21,544 nucleotides of DNA. Origin: a virus. Taxonomy: Duplodnaviria; Heunggongvirae; Uroviricota; Caudoviricetes. Each line of letters opens with the position of its first letter. Position 1 is the first letter of the stretch. The stretch lies in the IMG/VR virus record IMGVR_UViG_2537561688_000020; one strand, written 5' to 3'. Position numbers and translations under genes: made by a program. Under the pieces are notes generated by a model. The model had not been told where the DNA came from. It made no database searches and saw nothing but the letters and a program-made list of their open reading frames with translations. Of the stretch, positions 1,777-14,921 are shown in pieces.

Positions 1777-3372
1777 TTATGGCTGAGACTCTGGTTTAGC
1801 AATCTCGTTTATAAATTTCTTAGCTACAACAGTCTCATACTTTCTATAATCATCAAGATATTGAACATCTATATGATTTTTGTAGCGAGCATTAAATTTA
1901 TTTGCAGCCCCTGTTTTATCATCTTTACGTTCATCCGTTGGTCTGAAAAATTTATGGTAGCGGCGGGGTGATACCCCCTCAAAATCACAAAATATTACTT
2001 TGGAAGATTCTTCGTTCTTTGTTATTGCATCATTATGCAGATCAAGAGCAAGGCTTTTATCAAATGGCTCTATATATACTACTTTTTTTATTCCAGATGC
2101 GACAATATGCCTTGCACAGTTGTGGCAGGGGTAGGTTGTCGTAAAAAGAATTTTATCTTTAGTATCGCCGTTTTGTTTTCTAGCCATTGATGTAATGACG
2201 TCCATTTCAGCATGAATTGATCTGGAGTACTCCATTACACTTGATATTTTGCTGTCTTTGTAAATGCCTTCTGCAATATTATCTAATTTGTTTAGAAGTC
2301 GTGTTATATTAATATCGGCAACAGTTTGTCCTGCGGAAATACCTAATACACTTCTTACTTCGGTTGATAATATGCTTTTTATACGGTCTTTAATTTTTAG
2401 CTTGTTTGCATCATTATAACACTTACCACTTTTGTGAACGCATCGATGATCGTTATCAAAATCATCACTGCTATACAACCCGCCACCAGCTTTAGGTACG
2501 TCGTTCTTACCCACGGCAAGCAAATTCCCTTCATCATCAAACAGTGCAGCCCCTACTTGACGTGATAAACAAGCTGATTGTAATGATGTTGAAAAGGCAG
2601 CATACATACCTTTCTCGTTAAAAGTTGGTGTTAAACCATTTTTGCCATGAATAAGACCGAAAAACCGATCAATCTTCTTCTTTAATTCACTTTTTTGGCT
2701 GAAGTTATTTTTAATAAAAAAATCTGAATCAAGAATGGTTTCCCCGGTTCTTTGTCCATACGGATCAGAGGATTTATTATCAATATTGATAATTAAATGA
2801 AGGTCGTCCTTTGCCGATTCGTCAGCAATGAGATTCGGAATTCGGTAATCTAAATCGCGCAAAACTCCTAACAAATAGAAATTATGCTGATATATAACTC
2901 TGAATAACTCTATTTCTTCCGGCCTTTTGAATTGATCAATGATGAAGACAGTACCTTTATATTCATCATTATTATAATCAATATTCTTTTTCGCTGTTGC
3001 GATTGCTGCAATAGCAGCTTCTGCAAGCAACTCATTTTTTTCGTAATGTTTACGAAGTTTATTGGCAATATCCTGGAGTTTTAAATGTCTATTAACTTGT
3101 GTGCTTTCGGATACCTTCAGTGCTGCTGGCTCAAAATATAATGGGTCTTCCATAAGCGCACTTATGCGGATGTGTACAACATTATCCCCCCATTCTTTGG
3201 ATATCTCTTCGATAATTTTGTTTATCGTTCTCATGCCACATCCAACATATCCACACAATCCAAGATAAATATCTTTTGATTGTCGTGAATTCACAATCTC
3301 AAGTGATGATGCCGATGTTGAGCCTTTTTTTTCATTCAGCTTTTGTGGAGTTTTTTTTGCTGCTTCAGCCAT
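1777..3372 (-). CDS. dcdV: DcdV-like anti-phage deoxycytidylate (dCTP/dCMP) deaminase: N-terminal P-loop-like domain fused to C-terminal zinc CDA-fold deaminase
   Basis: 531-aa ORF. C-terminal zinc-deaminase signature: CLSRQVGAALF, then HAE (H387/E389), then PCHNC (C416/C419) and GIKKVVY, as in dCMP deaminases. N-terminal glycine-rich P-loop-like stretch GLCGYVGCGMRT. About 32% GC in a sampled stretch versus about 60% in the replication genes. Int-proximal cargo position. Confidence 0.7.
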   Translation of the reverse strand: MAEAAKKTPQKLNEKKGSTSASSLEIVNSRQSKDIYLGLCGYVGCGMRTINKIIEEISKEWGDNVVHIRISALMEDPLYFEPAALKVSESTQVNRHLKLQDIANKLRKHYEKNELLAEAAIAAIATAKKNIDYNNDEYKGTVFIIDQFKRPEEIELFRVIYQHNFYLLGVLRDLDYRIPNLIADESAKDDLHLIINIDNKSSDPYGQRTGETILDSDFFIKNNFSQKSELKKKIDRFFGLIHGKNGLTPTFNEKGMYAAFSTSLQSACLSRQVGAALFDDEGNLLAVGKNDVPKAGGGLYSSDDFDNDHRCVHKSGKCYNDANKLKIKDRIKSILSTEVRSVLGISAGQTVADINITRLLNKLDNIAEGIYKDSKISSVMEYSRSIHAEMDVITSMARKQNGDTKDKILFTTTYPCHNCARHIVASGIKKVVYIEPFDKSLALDLHNDAITKNEESSKVIFCDFEGVSPRRYHKFFRPTDERKDDKTGAANKFNARYKNHIDVQYLDDYRKYETVVAKKFINEIAKPESQP

Positions 3373-7664: not shown

Positions 7665-8339
7665 TTAGGCCTTTATTGTGTATCTTCTTGGTTTTCCCGA
7701 GAAAATCACTGTACCAATTATAGAGCAATTACCGTTAATCTTAATGTAAGGCTCAGGCCAGTTTGGGTTTAATGCTTTGAGATAACGCTGTGTTCCATCT
7801 TCTATCAACCGCTTGAAGGTGGTTTCGCCTGAATCGTGCATCAATGCAATAACGTCGTCACCGTGGCAGGCAGGGACTTCAGGATCTACAAAAATCATGT
7901 CTCCCGGGCGGTACTCATCAATCATTGAATCACCAATCACCCGCAAGATATAAGTCATTTCGCCACAGGGTACAGGGCAGGGATAAGTTTCTGCTGTGCT
8001 CAAATCAACCTCAGAATAGCCAACTTCTTTCCATGCTCCGGCCTGTACCCATGATATGACAGGGACTAACGTTATTTGTTTGTTAGTAATTGAAACATCA
8101 GGTTTTTTTGTGATGTTTGTTGTCTGGTGTTCTTGATCAAGCCATCCGACAGGCAGGTCGAAACATTTTTCGATGTGCCGTGCCATGCTGTCACCGATAT
8201 TTTTAGTAGCACCATCTCCCATAAACCTGCTGGTCTGGGTTGGCTCGCGATCAATCATGGTGGCAAAGGAAGAATTCCCGCCAACACCATCTCTCAGTTT
8301 TCTGGCGTTAGACCGCCGGATGTCATGGACTGTTTTCAT
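7665..8339 (-). CDS. CI-like prophage repressor (N-terminal HTH plus C-terminal S24 LexA-like peptidase domain)
   Basis: 224-aa ORF. C-terminal S24 signatures (RVIGDSM, later Lys) and an N-terminal phage CI-type DNA-binding region. Divergent from a Cro-like gene. Confidence 0.85.
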   Translation of the reverse strand: MKTVHDIRRSNARKLRDGVGGNSSFATMIDREPTQTSRFMGDGATKNIGDSMARHIEKCFDLPVGWLDQEHQTTNITKKPDVSITNKQITLVPVISWVQAGAWKEVGYSEVDLSTAETYPCPVPCGEMTYILRVIGDSMIDEYRPGDMIFVDPEVPACHGDDVIALMHDSGETTFKRLIEDGTQRYLKALNPNWPEPYIKINGNCSIIGTVIFSGKPRRYTIKA

Positions 8340-8661: not shown

Positions 8662-9225
8662 ATGAGGCTAACCGTGGGTAAGCATCACTGGAAAGTAGAA
8701 AAACAGCCTGAGTGGTACGTGAAAGCTGTCAGAAAAACTATCGCGGCGTTGCCGGGGGGTTACGCTGAAGCTGCTGAGTGGCTGGATGTAACAGAGAACG
8801 CTTTATTCAACCGCCTTCGTGCAGATGGCGATCAGATTTTCCCGCTGGGATGGGCAATGATTTTACAGCGCGCGGCTGGCACTCACTACATTGCGGATGC
8901 TGTCGCACAGTCTGCTGGTGGGGTGTTTGTATCGCTTCCTGAAATTGAGGAAGTAGAGAACGCCGATATAAACCAGCGCCTGCTGGAAGTCATCGAACAG
9001 ATCGGGAGTTACTCAAAGCAGATTCGTTCGGCAATCGAAGATGGGGTAGTGGAGCCACACGAGCAGACAGCAATTAATGATGAGTTGTATCTGTCAATTT
9101 CGAAGCTCCAGGAGCATGCAGCACTGGTCTACAAAATCTTTTGCGCTCCAGAAAAGAGTGACGCCCGCGAGTGTGCAGCTCCGGGCGTCGTGGCGTTTTG
9201 TGTCTGTGGAGAAACTAACGCATGA
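8662..9225 (+). CDS. Hypothetical protein in cII position (possible CII/YdaT-like regulator)
   Basis: 187-aa ORF, first gene after cro, translationally coupled to the next gene (ATGA overlap). Family assignment is tentative. Confidence 0.4.
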   Translation: MRLTVGKHHWKVEKQPEWYVKAVRKTIAALPGGYAEAAEWLDVTENALFNRLRADGDQIFPLGWAMILQRAAGTHYIADAVAQSAGGVFVSLPEIEEVENADINQRLLEVIEQIGSYSKQIRSAIEDGVVEPHEQTAINDELYLSISKLQEHAALVYKIFCAPEKSDARECAAPGVVAFCVCGETNA

Positions 9226-10058
9226 ACAGTTTAACGGCAAATAACCGTTTGTCGCAACAGCTGGTGGTCAGCGTCGCTGAACACCTGTTGTTACGGCATG
9301 AATGCAGATTACCAAATCTCCTGGCTGTAAGTAACCACAGAGAACTTTACCTGACTGTGGGGGGCGAGTTGTGCAGGAACTTAACCGCTGGTTTCGTGAC
9401 GGAAGAGGACTTTATGTTCATGTTATTCGTTGGGAGCCAGAAACACAGCGCGTTATCTATCTTCGCAAAGACTACCCGCATGAGTGCTTTAGCCCTTTGT
9501 GGAAATTCAGGCGTGATTTTGTTGAGTGTGAAGGACCACCAGCACATTGATTCTGCCATTCCGGGACGTTACACTGTTCAGGCACCTTATAAAGCGGGTG
9601 TCGGGATTGGCGTCCTGGAATTGCATACGGCGACAATTGGCGCGTTAGCGTCTTTTTTGTTGCTACAACTCAGCTATACCCAAATTATGGTGGGCTGGGT
9701 GGGGGCACCGAAAGGTGCGCCGGTTTCCGTATGCGCCGGTTACGCCAACCCTGCTCAGTTCACCACCAGCGAAATTGGCGTTTCCGGTGGTGGAAGTTAT
9801 CCATTGCATACGGAGGCTGCCATCATGGCTACTGTCCCAGCCCTCTCTCGTCTGAATGATGAAGACTTACATAAACTCAGTTATGTAACAACTGCACTAC
9901 GTGCTCTGCGCAAGGTAACTCTTTCGGATCCGCAGGCGCATCAGGTTTTGGTAGAAACCCTTCTTAACTTGCAGGCTGAACGTATTCGTCTGGCGGATAA
10001 GGCTAATTTTCATATTCACCGTCTCCTGAATATCAGCGGAGGGCATCGTCATGCTTAA
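9222..10058 (+). CDS. Hypothetical protein
   Basis: 278-aa ORF coupled at both ends to flanking genes. No recognisable motif, no P-loop. Confidence 0.4.
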   Translation: MNSLTANNRLSQQLVVSVAEHLLLRHECRLPNLLAVSNHRELYLTVGGELCRNLTAGFVTEEDFMFMLFVGSQKHSALSIFAKTTRMSALALCGNSGVILLSVKDHQHIDSAIPGRYTVQAPYKAGVGIGVLELHTATIGALASFLLLQLSYTQIMVGWVGAPKGAPVSVCAGYANPAQFTTSEIGVSGGGSYPLHTEAAIMATVPALSRLNDEDLHKLSYVTTALRALRKVTLSDPQAHQVLVETLLNLQAERIRLADKANFHIHRLLNISGGHRHA

Positions 10059-10287
10059 TCCGTTGATCCTCAATATTTGCCGTTTGCTTCAGCGTAAAAA
10101 AACATCAATTCCTACAGTTGGGCAGTGGTACACCACACCTGCAGGGCATGTTCTACGTGTTAGCCTGGTTGACCGTGAATGCCAGAAGGTGATTTGTGAA
10201 CCGCTGGGCCGTAATTACCGCGTCAGTATGCCGCTTATAGCCTTTCGCTCCGGAAAAAACATGAAGCATCTCGGAGGTGCAGCATGA
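10051..10287 (+). CDS. Small hypothetical protein
   Basis: 78-aa ORF, start overlaps the upstream stop and its stop overlaps the next start (ATGA). Confidence 0.35.
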   Translation: MLNPLILNICRLLQRKKTSIPTVGQWYTTPAGHVLRVSLVDRECQKVICEPLGRNYRVSMPLIAFRSGKNMKHLGGAA

Positions 10288-11126
10288 GTATGGAGCTGAT
10301 GGTTAAAGCGATGAAAATTCGAGTGGGTAATCCATTGCGAAAACTGGTTCTGATCAAGCTGGCTGATAATGCCAGCGATCAGGGTGAGTGCTGGCCCAGC
10401 TACCAGCATATTGCTGACCAGTGTGAGATTAGCAAACGTTCTGTGATGAATCATATTGCGGCCCTTTGTGAGTCCGGGCTGGTAAAAAAAGTCACCCGGA
10501 AAGGTGAAAAAGGTAACTCAAGTAATATCTATCTCCTTCATCTGGATGGTGCAGGAGATTCACTAGGGGGTAGTGCAAATAATTCACTATCTGGTGCAGC
10601 AAATTCACTAGGTAGTGCAGGAGTTGCACCAGGGGGTAGTGCAGGAGATTCACCCAGAACCAGTCACTCTTTTGAACCAGTCAAAGAACCAGTCAAAGAA
10701 CCAGTCAATGAACCAGTCAATGAACCAATAGCTGTTGGTGCATCAGTTGATGAGTCCGTGCGAGTTCGTTCAAACCGACCGGAATCCTCTCCGGAGTTTG
10801 AGCAGGCATGGCTGGCATATCCCAAACGTGCTGGTGGCAATTCAAAATCTGCAGCCTTCAAAGCCTGGAAAGCCCGTTTGAATGAGGGGGTAAACCCCGA
10901 AACCATGCTGGAAGGTGTGAAACGCTACGCGGGCTGGGTATCTGCGATGGGTAACAGCGGCACACAATTTGTGAAACAGGCTGTCACGTTCTTTGGTCCG
11001 GATCGTCATTTCGAAGAATCCTGGGAAGTTCCTGCGGTATCTGCAGCTAGACGTGAGGACCCGTACTTCAAAGCCAGTTACGACAACGTGGACTACAGCC
11101 AGATCCCGGCAGGATTCAGGGGGTGA
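10284..11126 (+). CDS. Putative replication initiator (O-like) with N-terminal HTH and internal iteron-encoding linker
   Basis: N-terminal HTH typical of phage replication organisers (LVLIKLADNASDQGECWPSYQHIADQCEISKRSVMNHIAAL). Central low-complexity linker encoded by tandem DNA repeats. Sits in the lambda O position. Confidence 0.5.
   Translation: MSMELMVKAMKIRVGNPLRKLVLIKLADNASDQGECWPSYQHIADQCEISKRSVMNHIAALCESGLVKKVTRKGEKGNSSNIYLLHLDGAGDSLGGSANNSLSGAANSLGSAGVAPGGSAGDSPRTSHSFEPVKEPVKEPVNEPVNEPIAVGASVDESVRVRSNRPESSPEFEQAWLAYPKRAGGNSKSAAFKAWKARLNEGVNPETMLEGVKRYAGWVSAMGNSGTQFVKQAVTFFGPDRHFEESWEVPAVSAARREDPYFKASYDNVDYSQIPAGFRG
10657..10727. repeat. Tandem 12-bp iterons (GAACCAGTCAAA/T, about 5.5 copies) inside the O-like gene; candidate replication origin
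   Basis: Units at 10674, 10686, 10698 and 10710, a half unit at 10722 and a degenerate copy at 10657. Encode (EPVK/EPVN)n. An imperfect repeat block (ATTCACTA / GGTAGTGCA motifs) lies at 10549-10655. Confidence 0.5.
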
Positions 11127-11617
11127 TCATGAGTCTTTTGAATGAAGTTCAGAAATTCATTGAAGCCCATCCGGGGTGTACTTCCGGAGACATTGCGGAT
11201 GCTTTTGCAGGTTACTCACGGCAGCGCGTTCTGCAGTCAGCAAGCAAGTTACGTCAGAGTGGGCGTGTGGCTCACCGTTGTGAAGGAGATACACGCAGAC
11301 ATTTCCCACGCCTGACTGAGAGAGCGCAGGAGCCGGAACCACAACCAGTTCGTGAAACCAGACCTGTGCGCAATTTCTATGTCGGCACTAACGATCCCCG
11401 GGTGATTTTGTGCCTGACCCGCCAGGCGGAAGAACTGGAGTCCAGGGGCTTATACCGTCGTGCTGCAACGGTGTGGATGGCGGCATTCCGTGAAAGCTAC
11501 TCCCAGCCAGAACGAAACAATTTTCTGGCGCGTCGTGAACGGTGTTTACGGAAAAGCAGTAAGCGGGCTGCATCAGGTGAAGAGTGGTATCTGTCAGGGA
11601 ATTACGTGGGGGCTTAA
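11123..11617 (+). CDS. PerC-family-like transcriptional regulator (YfdN-like)
   Basis: 164-aa ORF containing the PerC-type motif LESRGLYRRAATVWMAAF. Coupled to flanking genes. Confidence 0.5.
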   Translation: MIMSLLNEVQKFIEAHPGCTSGDIADAFAGYSRQRVLQSASKLRQSGRVAHRCEGDTRRHFPRLTERAQEPEPQPVRETRPVRNFYVGTNDPRVILCLTRQAEELESRGLYRRAATVWMAAFRESYSQPERNNFLARRERCLRKSSKRAASGEEWYLSGNYVGA

Positions 11618-11943
11618 TGACGACGTTAACTCAATGCCAGCAGCAGGTGCTGGATATGCTGATTTCTTACCAGAAAGAACGTGGCTTCCCGCCAACCAAT
11701 CAGGAGGTGGCAACCATGCTGGGATACCGTTCGGTGAATGCAGCGGTGGAGCATCTTCGCGCACTGGAGAAAAAAGGCGTCATCACGATAAAGCGTGGCG
11801 TGGCCCGGGGGATAACGCTTCATACCGCGGTGAAGGACGACGACAGCGAGGCTGTCGGGATTATCCGCTCACTGCTTGCCGGTGAGGAAAACGCAAGGCT
11901 GCGTGCAACCCACTGGCTACATGAGAGAGGCCTGAAAGTATGA
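11617..11943 (+). CDS. LexA N-terminal DNA-binding-domain-only protein (no S24 peptidase domain)
   Basis: 108 aa from the ATG overlapping the upstream stop (TAATG). The segment LTQCQQQVLDMLISYQKERGFPPTNQEVATMLGYRSVNAAVEHLRALEKKGVI closely resembles the LexA winged-HTH domain (LTxRQQEV...GxPPTxxEIAxxLGFRSPNAAEEHLKALxRKGVI). Confidence 0.55.
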   Translation: MTTLTQCQQQVLDMLISYQKERGFPPTNQEVATMLGYRSVNAAVEHLRALEKKGVITIKRGVARGITLHTAVKDDDSEAVGIIRSLLAGEENARLRATHWLHERGLKV

Positions 11944-13159: not shown

Positions 13160-14155
13160 GTGACCGTGAGAGCACTACTGACCCCTGAAATTGCCCCGCG
13201 TATGGGGATCGTATTGTTCAGGCCAGGTTCAGAGCTGATGCCCCTGTTTATGCAGGGGCGTGTCCTGCTGGAGCCTGAGCCGGAACGTTATTCATCTTTC
13301 GCCAGTGGTGCCGTTCCGGCGGCATCACAACCGCTGGCGGATGATCCTGCCATTCGGGCCGTGTTCCGCAATGAGGCAGTGATCCGTCGTGCTGGTGGCG
13401 TGGAATGTCTTGAAAGCTGGTTACTTCGTGAAAAAGGCTGCCAGTGGCCTCATTCCGACTGGCACAGCGAGAACATGACCACAATGCGACACGCGCCGGG
13501 CGCAATCCGTCTGTGCTGGCACTGCGATAACCAGCTGCGCGATCAGTTCACGGAACGGCTGGAATCAATGGCAACGGATAACTGTGCCCGCTGGGTGTTG
13601 TCTGTTGTGCGTCGGGATCTCGGTTTTGATGACAGTCACGTTGTGACAATGCCGGAACTGTGCTGGTGGCTGATTCGTAATGACCTGGCGGATGCCTTAC
13701 CGGAAAGTGCAGCCCGTAAGGCACTGAGATTACCAAAGCCTGTTGTGCCGTCTGTCACCCGGGAAAGTGACCTTGTGCCTTCGGTTCCTGCCACCAGCAT
13801 CATCCAGGATAAAGCGAAAAAGGTGCTGGCGCTGAAAGTGGATCCGGAGTCGCCGGAGTCTTTTATGTTACGCCCAAAACGTCGCCGCTGGGTTAATGAA
13901 AAGTACACGCGCTGGGTTAAGACACAGCCGTGTGCATGTTGTGGAAAGCCCGCTGATGATCCCCACCACCTGATAGGTCACGGTCAGGGTGGAATGGGAA
14001 CAAAAGCGCATGACCTCTTTGTGTTGCCTTTGTGCAGAAAGCATCACGACGAGCTGCATGCGGATACCGTGGCATTTGAAGAGAAGTATGGCTCTCAGCT
14101 GGAGCTGATATTTCGTTTTATCGATCGTGCGCTGGCAATTGGCGTATTGGCGTAA
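13160..14155 (+). CDS. DUF968-domain phage protein (YdfU-like)
   Basis: C-terminal Cys/His-rich DUF968-like segment (QPCACCGKPADDPHHLIGHGQGG ... LCRKHHDELH). Immediately upstream of the Q-like gene, as in Qin-type prophages. Confidence 0.65.
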   Translation: MTVRALLTPEIAPRMGIVLFRPGSELMPLFMQGRVLLEPEPERYSSFASGAVPAASQPLADDPAIRAVFRNEAVIRRAGGVECLESWLLREKGCQWPHSDWHSENMTTMRHAPGAIRLCWHCDNQLRDQFTERLESMATDNCARWVLSVVRRDLGFDDSHVVTMPELCWWLIRNDLADALPESAARKALRLPKPVVPSVTRESDLVPSVPATSIIQDKAKKVLALKVDPESPESFMLRPKRRRWVNEKYTRWVKTQPCACCGKPADDPHHLIGHGQGGMGTKAHDLFVLPLCRKHHDELHADTVAFEEKYGSQLELIFRFIDRALAIGVLA

Positions 14156-14168
14156 GTGGAGAACGAGC

Positions 14169-14921
14169 ATGAACCTTGAAGCCTTACCAAAATATTACTC
14201 CCCAAAATCTCCAAAATTGAGCGATGACGCACCGGCGACAGGCTCAGGTGGTTTAACGATTACGGATGTGATGGCTGCGCAGGGGATGGTGCAGTCGAAA
14301 GCACCGCTTGGGTTTGCCTTATTCCTGGCAAAAGTTGGTGTTCAGGATCCTCAATTTGCGATTGAAGGTCTGCTCAATTACGCGATGGCACTGGATAACC
14401 CGACATTGAACAAATTGAGTGAAGAAACCCGGTTACAGATCATCCCTTACCTTGTGAATTTTGCCTTTGCTGATTATTCCAGGTCTGCGGCAAGTAAGGC
14501 TCGCTGTGAGCATTGTGCTGGTACTGGATTTCATAATGTATTGCGCGAAGTGGTGAAACACTCCAGAAGCGGGGAATCTGTTATCAAGGAAGAGTGGGTG
14601 AAGGAACTATGTCAGCATTGTCATGGTAAGGGAGAAGTCAGCACAGCGTGCAGAGGGTGTAAGGGTAAAGGTATTGTCCTGGATGAAAAAAGGACCCGGC
14701 TTCATGGCACGCCTGTTTATAAGATTTGTGGGCGTTGCAATGGAAACCGGTTTAGCCGTTTACCAACCACACTGGCGCGGCATCATGTCCAGAAGCTGGT
14801 ACCAGACCTGACGGATTATCAGTGGTACAAAGGATATGCAGATGTCATTGATAAACTGGTTACAAAGTGCTGGCAGGAAGAAGCATATGCAGAGATACAA
14901 TTGAGAAATGTGACAAGATAA
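14169..14921 (+). CDS. Q-like late-gene antiterminator
   Basis: 250 aa from the ATG at 14169 preceded by GGAG. Cys-rich zinc-binding segment (CEHCAGTG ... CQHCHGKG ... CRGCKGKG). Followed by a candidate late promoter and terminator; position precedes the lysis genes. Confidence 0.65.
   Translation: MNLEALPKYYSPKSPKLSDDAPATGSGGLTITDVMAAQGMVQSKAPLGFALFLAKVGVQDPQFAIEGLLNYAMALDNPTLNKLSEETRLQIIPYLVNFAFADYSRSAASKARCEHCAGTGFHNVLREVVKHSRSGESVIKEEWVKELCQHCHGKGEVSTACRGCKGKGIVLDEKRTRLHGTPVYKICGRCNGNRFSRLPTTLARHHVQKLVPDLTDYQWYKGYADVIDKLVTKCWQEEAYAEIQLRNVTR

Follow-up and report, generated by a model that had tools for sequence, protein, structure and literature searches.

The DNA analyzed here (the window, meaning the whole 21,544-nucleotide [nt] stretch of IMG/VR record IMGVR_UViG_2537561688_000020) is the early region of an Escherichia coli lambdoid prophage of the SfV/mEp460/"Eru6" type. 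Positions 10546 to 10727 of the window are probably the vegetative replication origin of this prophage. The region lies in the linker-coding part of the prophage's own initiator gene (10284 to 11126), with five 18-mers as the putative initiator sites and a conserved 37-nt block as a candidate second element. The comparative evidence for this lambdoid, origin-in-initiator anatomy is strong and comes from the sequences of more than 200 related loci. A lambda-like arrangement is thus very probably present here in a different initiator family.

The initiator protein and the repeats in its gene

The gene at 10284 to 11126 (plus strand) encodes a protein of 280 amino acids (aa) that a first-pass annotation, made from the sequence alone, had called a putative O-like initiator. 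This assignment held, as the protein matches the PHROG "replication initiation protein" (phrog_270) and "O-like" families with an E value of 6.4e-87. Residues 17 to 67 correspond to Pfam HTH_36 (PF13730; E = 1.9e-11), with an additional weak match to DnaD_N, and the Pfam matches at E values of 0.01 or lower were solely to HTH_36, DnaD_N, B-block_TFIIIC, and HTH_20. The lambda O family, Phage_rep_O (PF04492), was not matched in the Pfam search, and the analogy to the lambda origin that the first-pass annotation had drawn is therefore supported for the anatomy and not for family membership. The predicted structure of aa 1 to 91 is a winged helix with a predicted local distance difference test score (pLDDT) of 89. 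Its helices span aa 3 to 11, 17 to 29, 40 to 47, and 51 to 64, and a beta-hairpin wing follows at aa 67 to 85. The part coding for this N-terminal domain (aa 1 to 87) occupies 10284 to 10544 on the plus strand, and the recognition helix is that at aa 51 to 64. At the DNA level, the gene is 95 to 97% identical to SfV orf39, mEp460 gp43, cdtI orf46, its counterpart in Ayreon, and those of many Stx2- and Stx2c-converting phages, and it is 95.6% identical, over 100% of its length, to the HTH_36 gene of the Eru6 representative Stx2a_WGPS2 (AP012537.1).

Two sets of repeats lie within codons 88 to 148, between the coding parts for the HTH_36 domain and the C-terminal domain, which agrees with the earlier placement of the repeats in the linker-coding middle of the gene. 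Tandem Repeats Finder returned an array with a period of 21 to 24 base pairs (bp) at 10549 to 10653 (about 4.7 copies, 69% matches) and a period-12 array at 10674 to 10727 (4.5 copies, 97% matches, score of 94) with the consensus GAACCAGTCAAA. The upstream set resolves into five 18-mers within codons 88 to 124, all on the plus strand, that fit GTRGTGCANNANNTTCAC with 0 or 1 mismatch each and are spaced 24, 21, 21, and 24 bp from start to start. Iteron 1 (ATGGTGCAGGAGATTCAC, 10546 to 10563) has one mismatch to the class consensus and is followed by iteron 2 (GTAGTGCAAATAATTCAC, 10570 to 10587), iteron 3 (CTGGTGCAGCAAATTCAC, 10591 to 10608), and iteron 4 (GTAGTGCAGGAGTTGCAC, 10612 to 10629), the last of these being the nearest to a palindrome, or inverted repeat. 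Iteron 5 (GTAGTGCAGGAGATTCAC, 10636 to 10653) is the exact class consensus and abuts the conserved block. Dyad symmetry of the form T[A/G]GTGCA-N5-T[G/T]CAC is present in every 18-mer, including iteron 1. When up to three mismatches were allowed, GTRGTGCANNANNTTCAC matched 13 times in the window compared to 3.5 matches expected, and 13 matches were reached in 0 of 100 shuffles.

The conserved block, CC-AGAACCAGTCAC-TCTTTT-GAACCAGTCAAA-GAACC, occupies 10654 to 10690 on the plus strand, contains three GAACC pentamers that are 17 and 12 bp apart, and encodes the peptide RTSHSFEPVKEP. There are five exact copies of the decamer GAACCAGTCA in the window, all of them within 10657 to 10719. Its first copy (10657 to 10666, plus strand) sits 17 bp, not 12, from the next, with CTCTTTT intervening, and so falls out of register with the others. 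This copy is read as AGA-ACC-AGT-CAC (RTSH), while the tandem copies are read as GAA-CCA-GTC-AAA (EPVK), so that one decamer is used in two reading frames. The true tandem run, at 10674 to 10727 on the plus strand, consists of four full units of GAACCAGTCAA[A/T] plus GAACCAAT, a partial unit with the sixth GAACC, and encodes (EPVK/N)n. The GAACC units overall begin at 10657, 10674, 10686, 10698, 10710, and 10722. The first-pass annotation had thus located the repeats correctly, but its count of about 5.5 tandem copies from 10657 becomes 4.5 copies plus one detached, out-of-frame copy.

The upstream 18-mers vary together with the recognition helix

The initiators of nine phages with N-domains 51 to 71% identical to that of the window were read codon by codon: Min27 and mEp554 (Escherichia), a Klebsiella phage, Salmonella phage SF6, three Vibrio phages, and one phage each of Stenotrophomonas and Psychrobacter. 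In seven of the nine, the part coding for the winged helix is followed by 1 to 4 (mostly 3 or 4) dyad repeats of 19 to 24 bp, then by the block, and then by unrelated C-terminal domains. In mEp554 and the Psychrobacter phage, which make up the remainder, four dyad repeats precede a diverged form of the block. In a more distant relative, that of Pseudomonas phage MD8 (47% identity), there are seven iterons, after which GAACC occurs four times at 11- to 12-bp intervals, the first time in another frame. With MD8 included, the sampled phages carry 1 to 7 dyad repeats, and at least 3 in all except SF6. More remote still, the SfII initiator (39% identity) lacks a GAACC block and has repeats of 15 bp.

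The sequence of the dyad repeat is specific to the phage, being GTAGTGCAGGAGATTCAC in the window, GGGGCAGGAGCTGCCC in Min27, CTAGTGACAAAATGTCAC in Vibrio phage D62, CTATGCCAnnnGATGGCAC in the Klebsiella phage, and GGTAGTGTCAGAGAGACACC in mEp554. The peptides encoded by these repeat classes are unrelated, and the DNA skeleton is kept. In the Klebsiella phage and in mEp554, the repeats within one gene are even translated in different frames, which argues that the repeat is a unit of DNA and not of peptide.

A scan of IMG/VR with the block pattern gave at least 120 loci, and 113 complete genes among the matches listed were used to examine co-variation. These contained at least 28 recognition-helix variants, each with an iteron class of its own, and the block was unchanged among them. 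For 41 of the 54 listed genes that have the recognition helix of the window, the last iteron was GGGGGTAGTGCAGGAGATTCACCC. Distances between helices and distances between iterons were correlated across the 113 genes (Mantel rho = 0.56, p = 5e-4). The partial correlation remained at 0.54 when aa 1 to 45 were removed, and the reverse partial correlation, that of aa 1 to 45 with the iteron given the helix, was 0.14. The variable alignment columns are aa 49 to 56, 59 and 60, 62 to 64, and 68 to 79, which in the model are helix 3 and the wing, and aa 13 to 48 are mostly near-invariant. Such co-variation of helix and iteron is the classical signature of a lambdoid origin, and because of it the upstream 18-mers are the best candidates for the specific initiator sites. 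Their dyad symmetry and spacing of about two helical turns likewise fit the behavior of iterons.

Iteron number is variable. Among 76 loci of the SfV class with the exact block pattern, there were 4 iterons in 6 loci, 5 in 67, 6 in 2, and 7 in 1. In phage cdtI, a 66-bp tandem duplication (about 559 to 624 of that locus, L010) raises the number of iterons by three, from five to eight.

The 37-nt block is conserved as DNA

In seven of the nine sampled phages, the stretch CC-AGAACCAGTCAC-TCTTTT-GAACCAGTCAnn-GAACC is near-invariant, and it stays constant while the iterons, the C-terminal domain, the helicase partner, and the order of the host all vary. The conservation extends to synonymous positions. 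At residues that are identical in pairwise comparisons of eight genes, the same codon is used in 94% of cases (261/279) over the 12 codons of the block versus 41% (632/1528) in the N-domain. Degenerate residues that are invariant are encoded by a single codon at 7 of 8 positions in the block (AGA, ACC, CAC, TCT, GAA, GTC, and GAA) versus 1 of 34 in the N-domain (Fisher p = 2.3e-6), and of these, AGA, ACC, CAC, and TCT do not vary among the phages that infect Escherichia, Klebsiella, Salmonella, Vibrio, and Stenotrophomonas. The frozen synonymous codons, together with the use of the decamer in two frames, rule out a purely protein-level explanation of the block, and the constraint on it accordingly acts on the DNA.

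The edges of the block are sharp. Over 60 distinct iteron classes, positions -2 to +34 score 1.5 to 2.0 bits, and from +35 on the score is 0.85 bits or less. Eight of these positions (-2, -1, +27, and +30 to +34) lie outside the pattern that was used in the search, and each is constant in 58 to 60 of the 60 classes. A scan of one genome per species with the block pattern found 47 prophage loci, the hosts of which include at least 16 named gammaproteobacterial genera: Pseudomonas, Xenorhabdus, Photorhabdus, Providencia, Proteus, Erwinia, Pantoea, Enterobacter, Lonsdalea, Symbiopectobacterium, Izhakiella, Shewanella, Parashewanella, Photobacterium, Haemophilus, and Microbulbifer. The block was also present in all of the best 80 loci selected by protein similarity, which all belong to the SfV class; in four of them the block has one point change. 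Diverged forms exist as well. The Psychrobacter phage has GAACCTATCAAT in 2.5 copies at the position of the block, and a group of Arsenophonus phage-plasmids and mEp554 have a variant block. From these sequences, the durable feature seems to be GAACC repeated at about one helical turn and adjoining the last iteron.

The 12-bp array is a variable expansion of the block

The first-pass annotation had stressed the 12-bp tandem units in its iteron array, an emphasis that the comparison does not sustain. The unit has the same sequence in initiators with different recognition helices, and its number ranges from 1 to 4 in near-identical genes: GAACCAGTCAA[A/T] is found once in Stx2c_EH0430; twice in SfV, cdtI, and WGPS2; three times in JNE082796; and four times in the window. 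Among the 76 loci with the exact pattern, out of the best 80 protein-selected ones, there was 1 unit in 8 loci, 2 in 65, 3 in 2, and 4 in 1, so that two is the usual number and the window carries a rare maximum. Absence of the repeats from otherwise conserved homologs had been named beforehand as a finding that would count against an origin. In most conserved homologs the multi-copy array is indeed absent, which counts in part against that annotation.

The units of the window end in AAA, AAA, AAT, and AAT, and those of the observed three-copy intermediate end in AAA, AAA, and AAT, an order that fits two successive 12-bp slippage events. Independent expansions of block units exist in other classes. 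In the Photorhabdus prophages L139 and L177, the first, out-of-frame unit of the block is duplicated, giving AGAACCAGTCAC AGAACCAATCAC TCTTTT GAACC..., and expansion is therefore not confined to the EPVK-coding unit. The array is thus a polymorphic expansion of the last unit of the block, and the 12-mers are probably not specificity iterons.

C-terminal domains, helicase partners, and replicating relatives

The C-terminal domain of the initiator (coding part at 10731 to 11123, plus strand) is helical, carries the motif YPKRAGGNSK...TFFGP and the tail IPAGFRG, and is presumed to recruit the host replication machinery. In PHROG, the last 130 residues match families whose annotation is replication initiation, DnaD-like loader, or primosomal protein, and searches with this domain of Pfam (E values up to 10), NCBIfam, and PDB sequences gave nothing meaningful. 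Across the related loci, the C-terminal domains form at least eight clusters that are freely combined with N-domain classes, the N-domain and the origin behaving as a module, as they do in lambda. The C-terminal cluster tracks the gene downstream, which encodes a lambda-P-like protein, a DnaB-like helicase, a DnaC-like ATPase, or a 626-aa primase-helicase or, in the type to which the window belongs, is not a replication gene.

The first-pass annotation had recognized no helicase loader in the operon, and we can extend this observation. The window as a whole encodes neither a helicase nor a loader, and the genes that follow the initiator are, in order, PerC/yfdN, a LexA DNA-binding-domain protein (LexA_DNA_bind), RusA, KilA-N, DUF968/HNH, and antiterminator Q (14127 to 14921). 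Likewise, none is annotated in the complete genome of the plaque-forming phage mEp460, in which a 96% identical initiator gene is the only annotated replication function. Since neither a helicase nor a loader is encoded by the phage, the C-terminal domain would, on the simplest reading, itself contact host DnaB-DnaC or primosome proteins.

Several observations on relatives bear on the C-terminal part. The "O" gene of Min27 (L001, 2501 to 3169 of the locus) has an odd, low-plausibility C-terminal sequence after the block, followed by a gene for a large primase-helicase. It may encode a frameshifted or truncated C-terminal domain or be a minimal initiator made of N-domain and origin. The tail REDPYFKASYDNVDYSQIPAGFRG (11051 to 11123, the last 24 initiator codons) is common to the otherwise unrelated C-terminal domain of SfII-type initiators, and the motif IPxGFRG is kept in homologs that are about 50% identical. 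The K-12 CPS-53 gene annotated as "helix-turn-helix domain-containing protein" or yfdN matches the initiator gene solely over its last 76 nt. The tail could be either a docking motif or a recombination joint with the PerC gene.

The initiator/origin module is also found on phage-sized circular records labeled as plasmids. Ten such plasmids of Arsenophonus nasoniae (28 to 104 kb; pArsFIN11 and nine sisters) encode a 60% identical initiator. In pArsFIN11, the initiator gene is followed by one for a DnaC-like ATPase, the iterons are of the form GTGACA...TGTCAC, the block is a variant one, and MOB-suite assigns the type rep_cluster_2302. Judged from their sequences, the Arsenophonus plasmids would be natural extrachromosomal replicons that use this origin family.

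A proposed mechanism and its alternatives

If the region is the origin, initiation could proceed as follows. Derepression would allow the early-right transcript to yield the initiator, the N-terminal winged helix of which would bind the five dyad iterons, probably as dimers, and the iteron-bound protein would build a nucleoprotein complex resembling the O-some of lambda. The 37-nt block with its periodic GAACC, lengthened here by the extra 12-bp units, would be the second element, most likely the site where the duplex is opened or held open and where the helicase is delivered, and the C-terminal domain would have to recruit host DnaB(-DnaC) or a component of the primosome. The 12-bp array would be a product of slippage that is tolerated because it encodes a flexible (EPVK)n linker, and it would not determine specificity. 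Binding of the iterons by the initiator, unwinding at the block, recruitment of the host helicase, and the start of replication at this place are all steps that we infer.

We propose that the block is a second functional part of the origin, acting either in unwinding and helicase entry or as a second protein-binding site. Between these, we favor by analogy a sequence-specific opening or helicase-entry element that would be read by a conserved face of the initiator, because the winged-helix Rep proteins of RK2 and F bind one strand of their 13-mers sequence specifically, with all repeats being needed (PMC4081077), and because lambda O binds single-stranded DNA (PMC7466680). The block and array are strongly strand-asymmetric, with A over T (A-T skew of up to 0.6). 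A more specific form of this proposal is put forward tentatively. It holds that the 37-nt GAACC-periodic block might be a sequence-specific, non-AT-rich origin core, recognized, probably as single-stranded or distorted DNA, by the aa 13 to 48 face or by a conserved gammaproteobacterial host factor, and that it would stay the same through dozens of origin specificities and with each type of helicase-delivery partner.

A number of points weigh against this interpretation, and the unwinding role of the block is its weakest step. The block and array are not AT-rich (54 to 61% AT over 10644 to 10744), and in a nearest-neighbor scan their 40-bp stability falls at about the 21st to 34th percentile from the least stable end, with the least stable spot in the gene at 10507 to 10547, to the left of the iterons. 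An AT-rich unwinding element was consequently rejected as an identity for the block and array. The copy number of the repeats is not critical, with 1 to 4 of the 12-mers and 4 to 7 iterons being found. The block pattern itself served to gather the diverse blocks, and the observations free of such ascertainment are the sequences flanking the pattern, the 11 phages chosen by protein, and the 80 loci of the SfV class chosen in the same way. The circular "plasmid" records may be merely excised phage DNA, and we regard phage-sized circular records as weak support for replication. In the open-access text, no published binding, unwinding, or replication-start data were found for this initiator family.

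Searches for other elements were largely negative. A host-factor site search found no integration host factor (IHF) consensus. As for DnaA boxes, there were two look-alikes with one mismatch (10503 to 10511 and 10970 to 10978), neither of them adjoining the repeats, and the repeats contain no GATC cluster. An internal promoter search of 10200 to 11200 gave none, and no acceptable -10 element was seen when the two strands of the block were inspected by hand. An RNA element was considered for the block and array and rejected, as they fold worse than shuffled sequences (z = +1.31) and the initiator gene has no match in Rfam.

Three other explanations of the repeats deserve to be weighed. The 12-bp tandem units could be the true initiator-bound iterons, with the upstream imperfect repeats being accessory. 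They are the most perfect repeats by the Tandem Repeats Finder statistics given above, they are direct repeats at regular intervals of about one helical turn, and the near-invariant face of the N-domain (aa 13 to 48) could in principle read a conserved site. We nevertheless consider this unlikely, as the unit does not change with the recognition helix in the way that specificity iterons do, near-identical genes function with a single tandem copy or with as many as four, and the norm in the family is one out-of-frame copy, one in-frame copy, and one GAACC. The unit also has no dyad symmetry, which is atypical for the site of a dimeric winged-helix initiator, and the lambda-like dyad, spacing, and co-variation all belong to the upstream repeats. 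Less probable still, and in our judgment very unlikely, is the idea that the repeats have no function as DNA and are slippage-prone coding for a flexible linker of Gly/Ser/Ala and (EPxx)n. The region does encode a low-complexity peptide, the repeat copy numbers are polymorphic in multiples of 3 nt, and EP-rich linkers are common in proteins. A linker would not account for one decamer being read in two frames or for the frozen synonymous sites (94% versus 41%), with the six-fold-degenerate Arg and Ser held at AGA and TCT in eight of eight phages. Nor would it account for relatives in which copies of one DNA repeat in a single gene are translated in more than one frame, or for repeat classes that encode unrelated peptides, keep their DNA skeleton, and track the recognition helix.

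The main rival for the function of the block itself is that it is kept mainly as an island of homology, a recombination joint between the module of N-domain and iterons and that of C-terminal domain and partner. That lambdoid phages have short conserved joints where modules meet is a classical idea, the C-terminal domains and partners do change exactly downstream of the block, and N-domain classes pair with several C-terminal classes. Against this, the identity is confined to 37 nt with sharp edges, and the flanks are unrelated between classes, so that homogenization would need repeated double crossovers within 37 nt. The block also has an internal structure, with GAACCAGTCA present twice and GAACC three times, and MD8, the Psychrobacter phage, the Arsenophonus plasmids, and mEp554 have no sequence identity here and yet keep either the GAACC periodicity or a variant block, which would be expected of a bound motif rather than of a patch of homology. 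A joint as the main reason for the conservation thus appears improbable, about as much so as the 12-mers being the true iterons, and we retain the second-element proposal for the block.

Neighboring genes in the window

The integrase gene (386 to 1624) is adjoined at 1777 to 3372 (minus strand) by a gene for a 531-aa protein with cytidine/dCMP deaminase and MafB19-like deaminase domains, which could be defense or anti-defense cargo. An S24 repressor gene (7665 to 8339, minus strand) and a CII/CP76-like gene (8662 to 9225) precede an Ash-family open reading frame (ORF) of the Ash/antirepressor type at 9222 to 10058 (plus strand), upstream of the initiator gene. The HTH_36 gene, the Ash-family ORF, and the S24 repressor together identify the region as Eru6 type, for which the defining features are an HTH_36 protein like that of Stx2a_WGPS2 and, before it, a Rha/Ash-type gene downstream of cI. 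No stx gene is present in the examined part of the window.

Within the Ash-family ORF, there are two Rfam matches at gathering level, both on the plus strand: the isrK Hfq-binding small RNA at 9582 to 9658 (58.9 bits) and C4 antisense RNA at 9683 to 9770 (80.7 bits). This suggests an antirepressor switch of the P1/P7 c4-ant type or of the Gifsy isrK type. The listed start of the ORF may be too far upstream, as its best PHROG match begins at aa 103. Between this ORF and the initiator gene is a 78-aa ORF (10051 to 10287, plus strand) that matches phrog_1153, a family of unknown function, and has no Pfam match. Its stop codon overlaps the start codon of the initiator gene (ATGA), and it is kept in relatives as SfV orf38 and cdtI orf45. 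The two genes are probably translationally coupled, and the product of the 78-aa ORF could be an accessory replication factor. Downstream, between the PerC and RusA genes, a 119-aa protein encoded at 11584 to 11943 (plus strand) consists of a LexA DNA-binding domain only (E = 3.7e-19), with no S24 peptidase domain, and might be a non-cleavable mimic of LexA.

Implications

The initiator gene is common. At least 80% of it is present in 880 of 5426 complete E. coli genomes (about 16%), and Stx2-, Stx2c-, and cytolethal distending toxin (CDT)-converting phages are among its carriers. In Stx phages, phage replication drives toxin output (PMC7466680). For such phages, the comparative map offers a concrete layout of an origin, namely, five iterons and a 37-nt block. 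The two main points of interest are the code that pairs helix with iteron and the invariance of the block. The more than 28 recognition-helix variants paired with iteron classes amount to a natural code that could guide work on origin specificity or incompatibility. The block, in turn, does not change at the nucleotide level in many gammaproteobacterial orders, irrespective of the helicase system, and it provides a 27- to 37-nt signature by which this class of phage origins can be located in genomes.

If the block is the site of opening or loading, an unwinding element would be definable by its sequence rather than by AT-richness. If it is the sequence-specific core, iteron recognition and origin opening would be separable and interchangeable modules, and the initiator of the window would load the host helicase without a phage-encoded loader. 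The loader-less type represented by the window would make a simple system in which to study how host DnaB is recruited directly.

Comparison with known systems

Origins that lie inside replisome-organizer genes are also found in phages of Gram-positive bacteria, including oriL in gene 38 of SPP1 and those of lactococcal phages. For the origin described here, no published description was found in the open-access text, and no origin is described in the papers defining the Eru5 and Eru6 types. The Eru6 Stx-phage region (Stx2a_WGPS2, PMC8951638) resembles the window in having the same HTH_36 gene with an Ash/"antirepressor"-type gene upstream. Unlike the present analysis, that work (Fagerlund et al. 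2022, PMC8951638) classifies gene content and describes no origin, iterons, or block.

Among well-studied replicons, oriV of RK2 with TrfA, oriS of F with RepE, and E. coli oriC are similar in that initiator sites are flanked on one side by short direct repeats of 12 to 13 nt. The unwinding elements of those origins are AT-rich, unlike the block and array of the window. In addition, no plasmid initiator fold or family of the Rep_3 type was matched by the window protein, unlike the RK2 and F initiators, and no DnaA boxes adjoin the repeats, unlike origins of the oriC type.

The closest parallels are with lambda and Stx phages, in which the origin lies in gene O and the number of iterons is polymorphic, 4 versus 6 (PMC7466680), and with P22 and phage L, in which repeats in gene 18 have likewise been inferred to be origins (PMC8022706). 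The window differs from lambda in that its initiator is HTH_36/DnaD_N-like and not of the Phage_rep_O family, that its iterons adjoin a sequence-conserved GAACC block of moderate AT content instead of an AT-rich tract, and that the phage has no P-like loader. In the other respects it follows the lambda, Stx, P22, and L plan. The putative origin is placed in the linker-coding middle of the initiator gene and has several dyad iterons of about 18 to 20 bp in direct orientation and about two helical turns apart. The sequence of the iterons is specific to the N-domain, a second element stands directly 3' of the last iteron, the number of iterons is polymorphic, and the C-terminal domain is matched to the partner that delivers the helicase.

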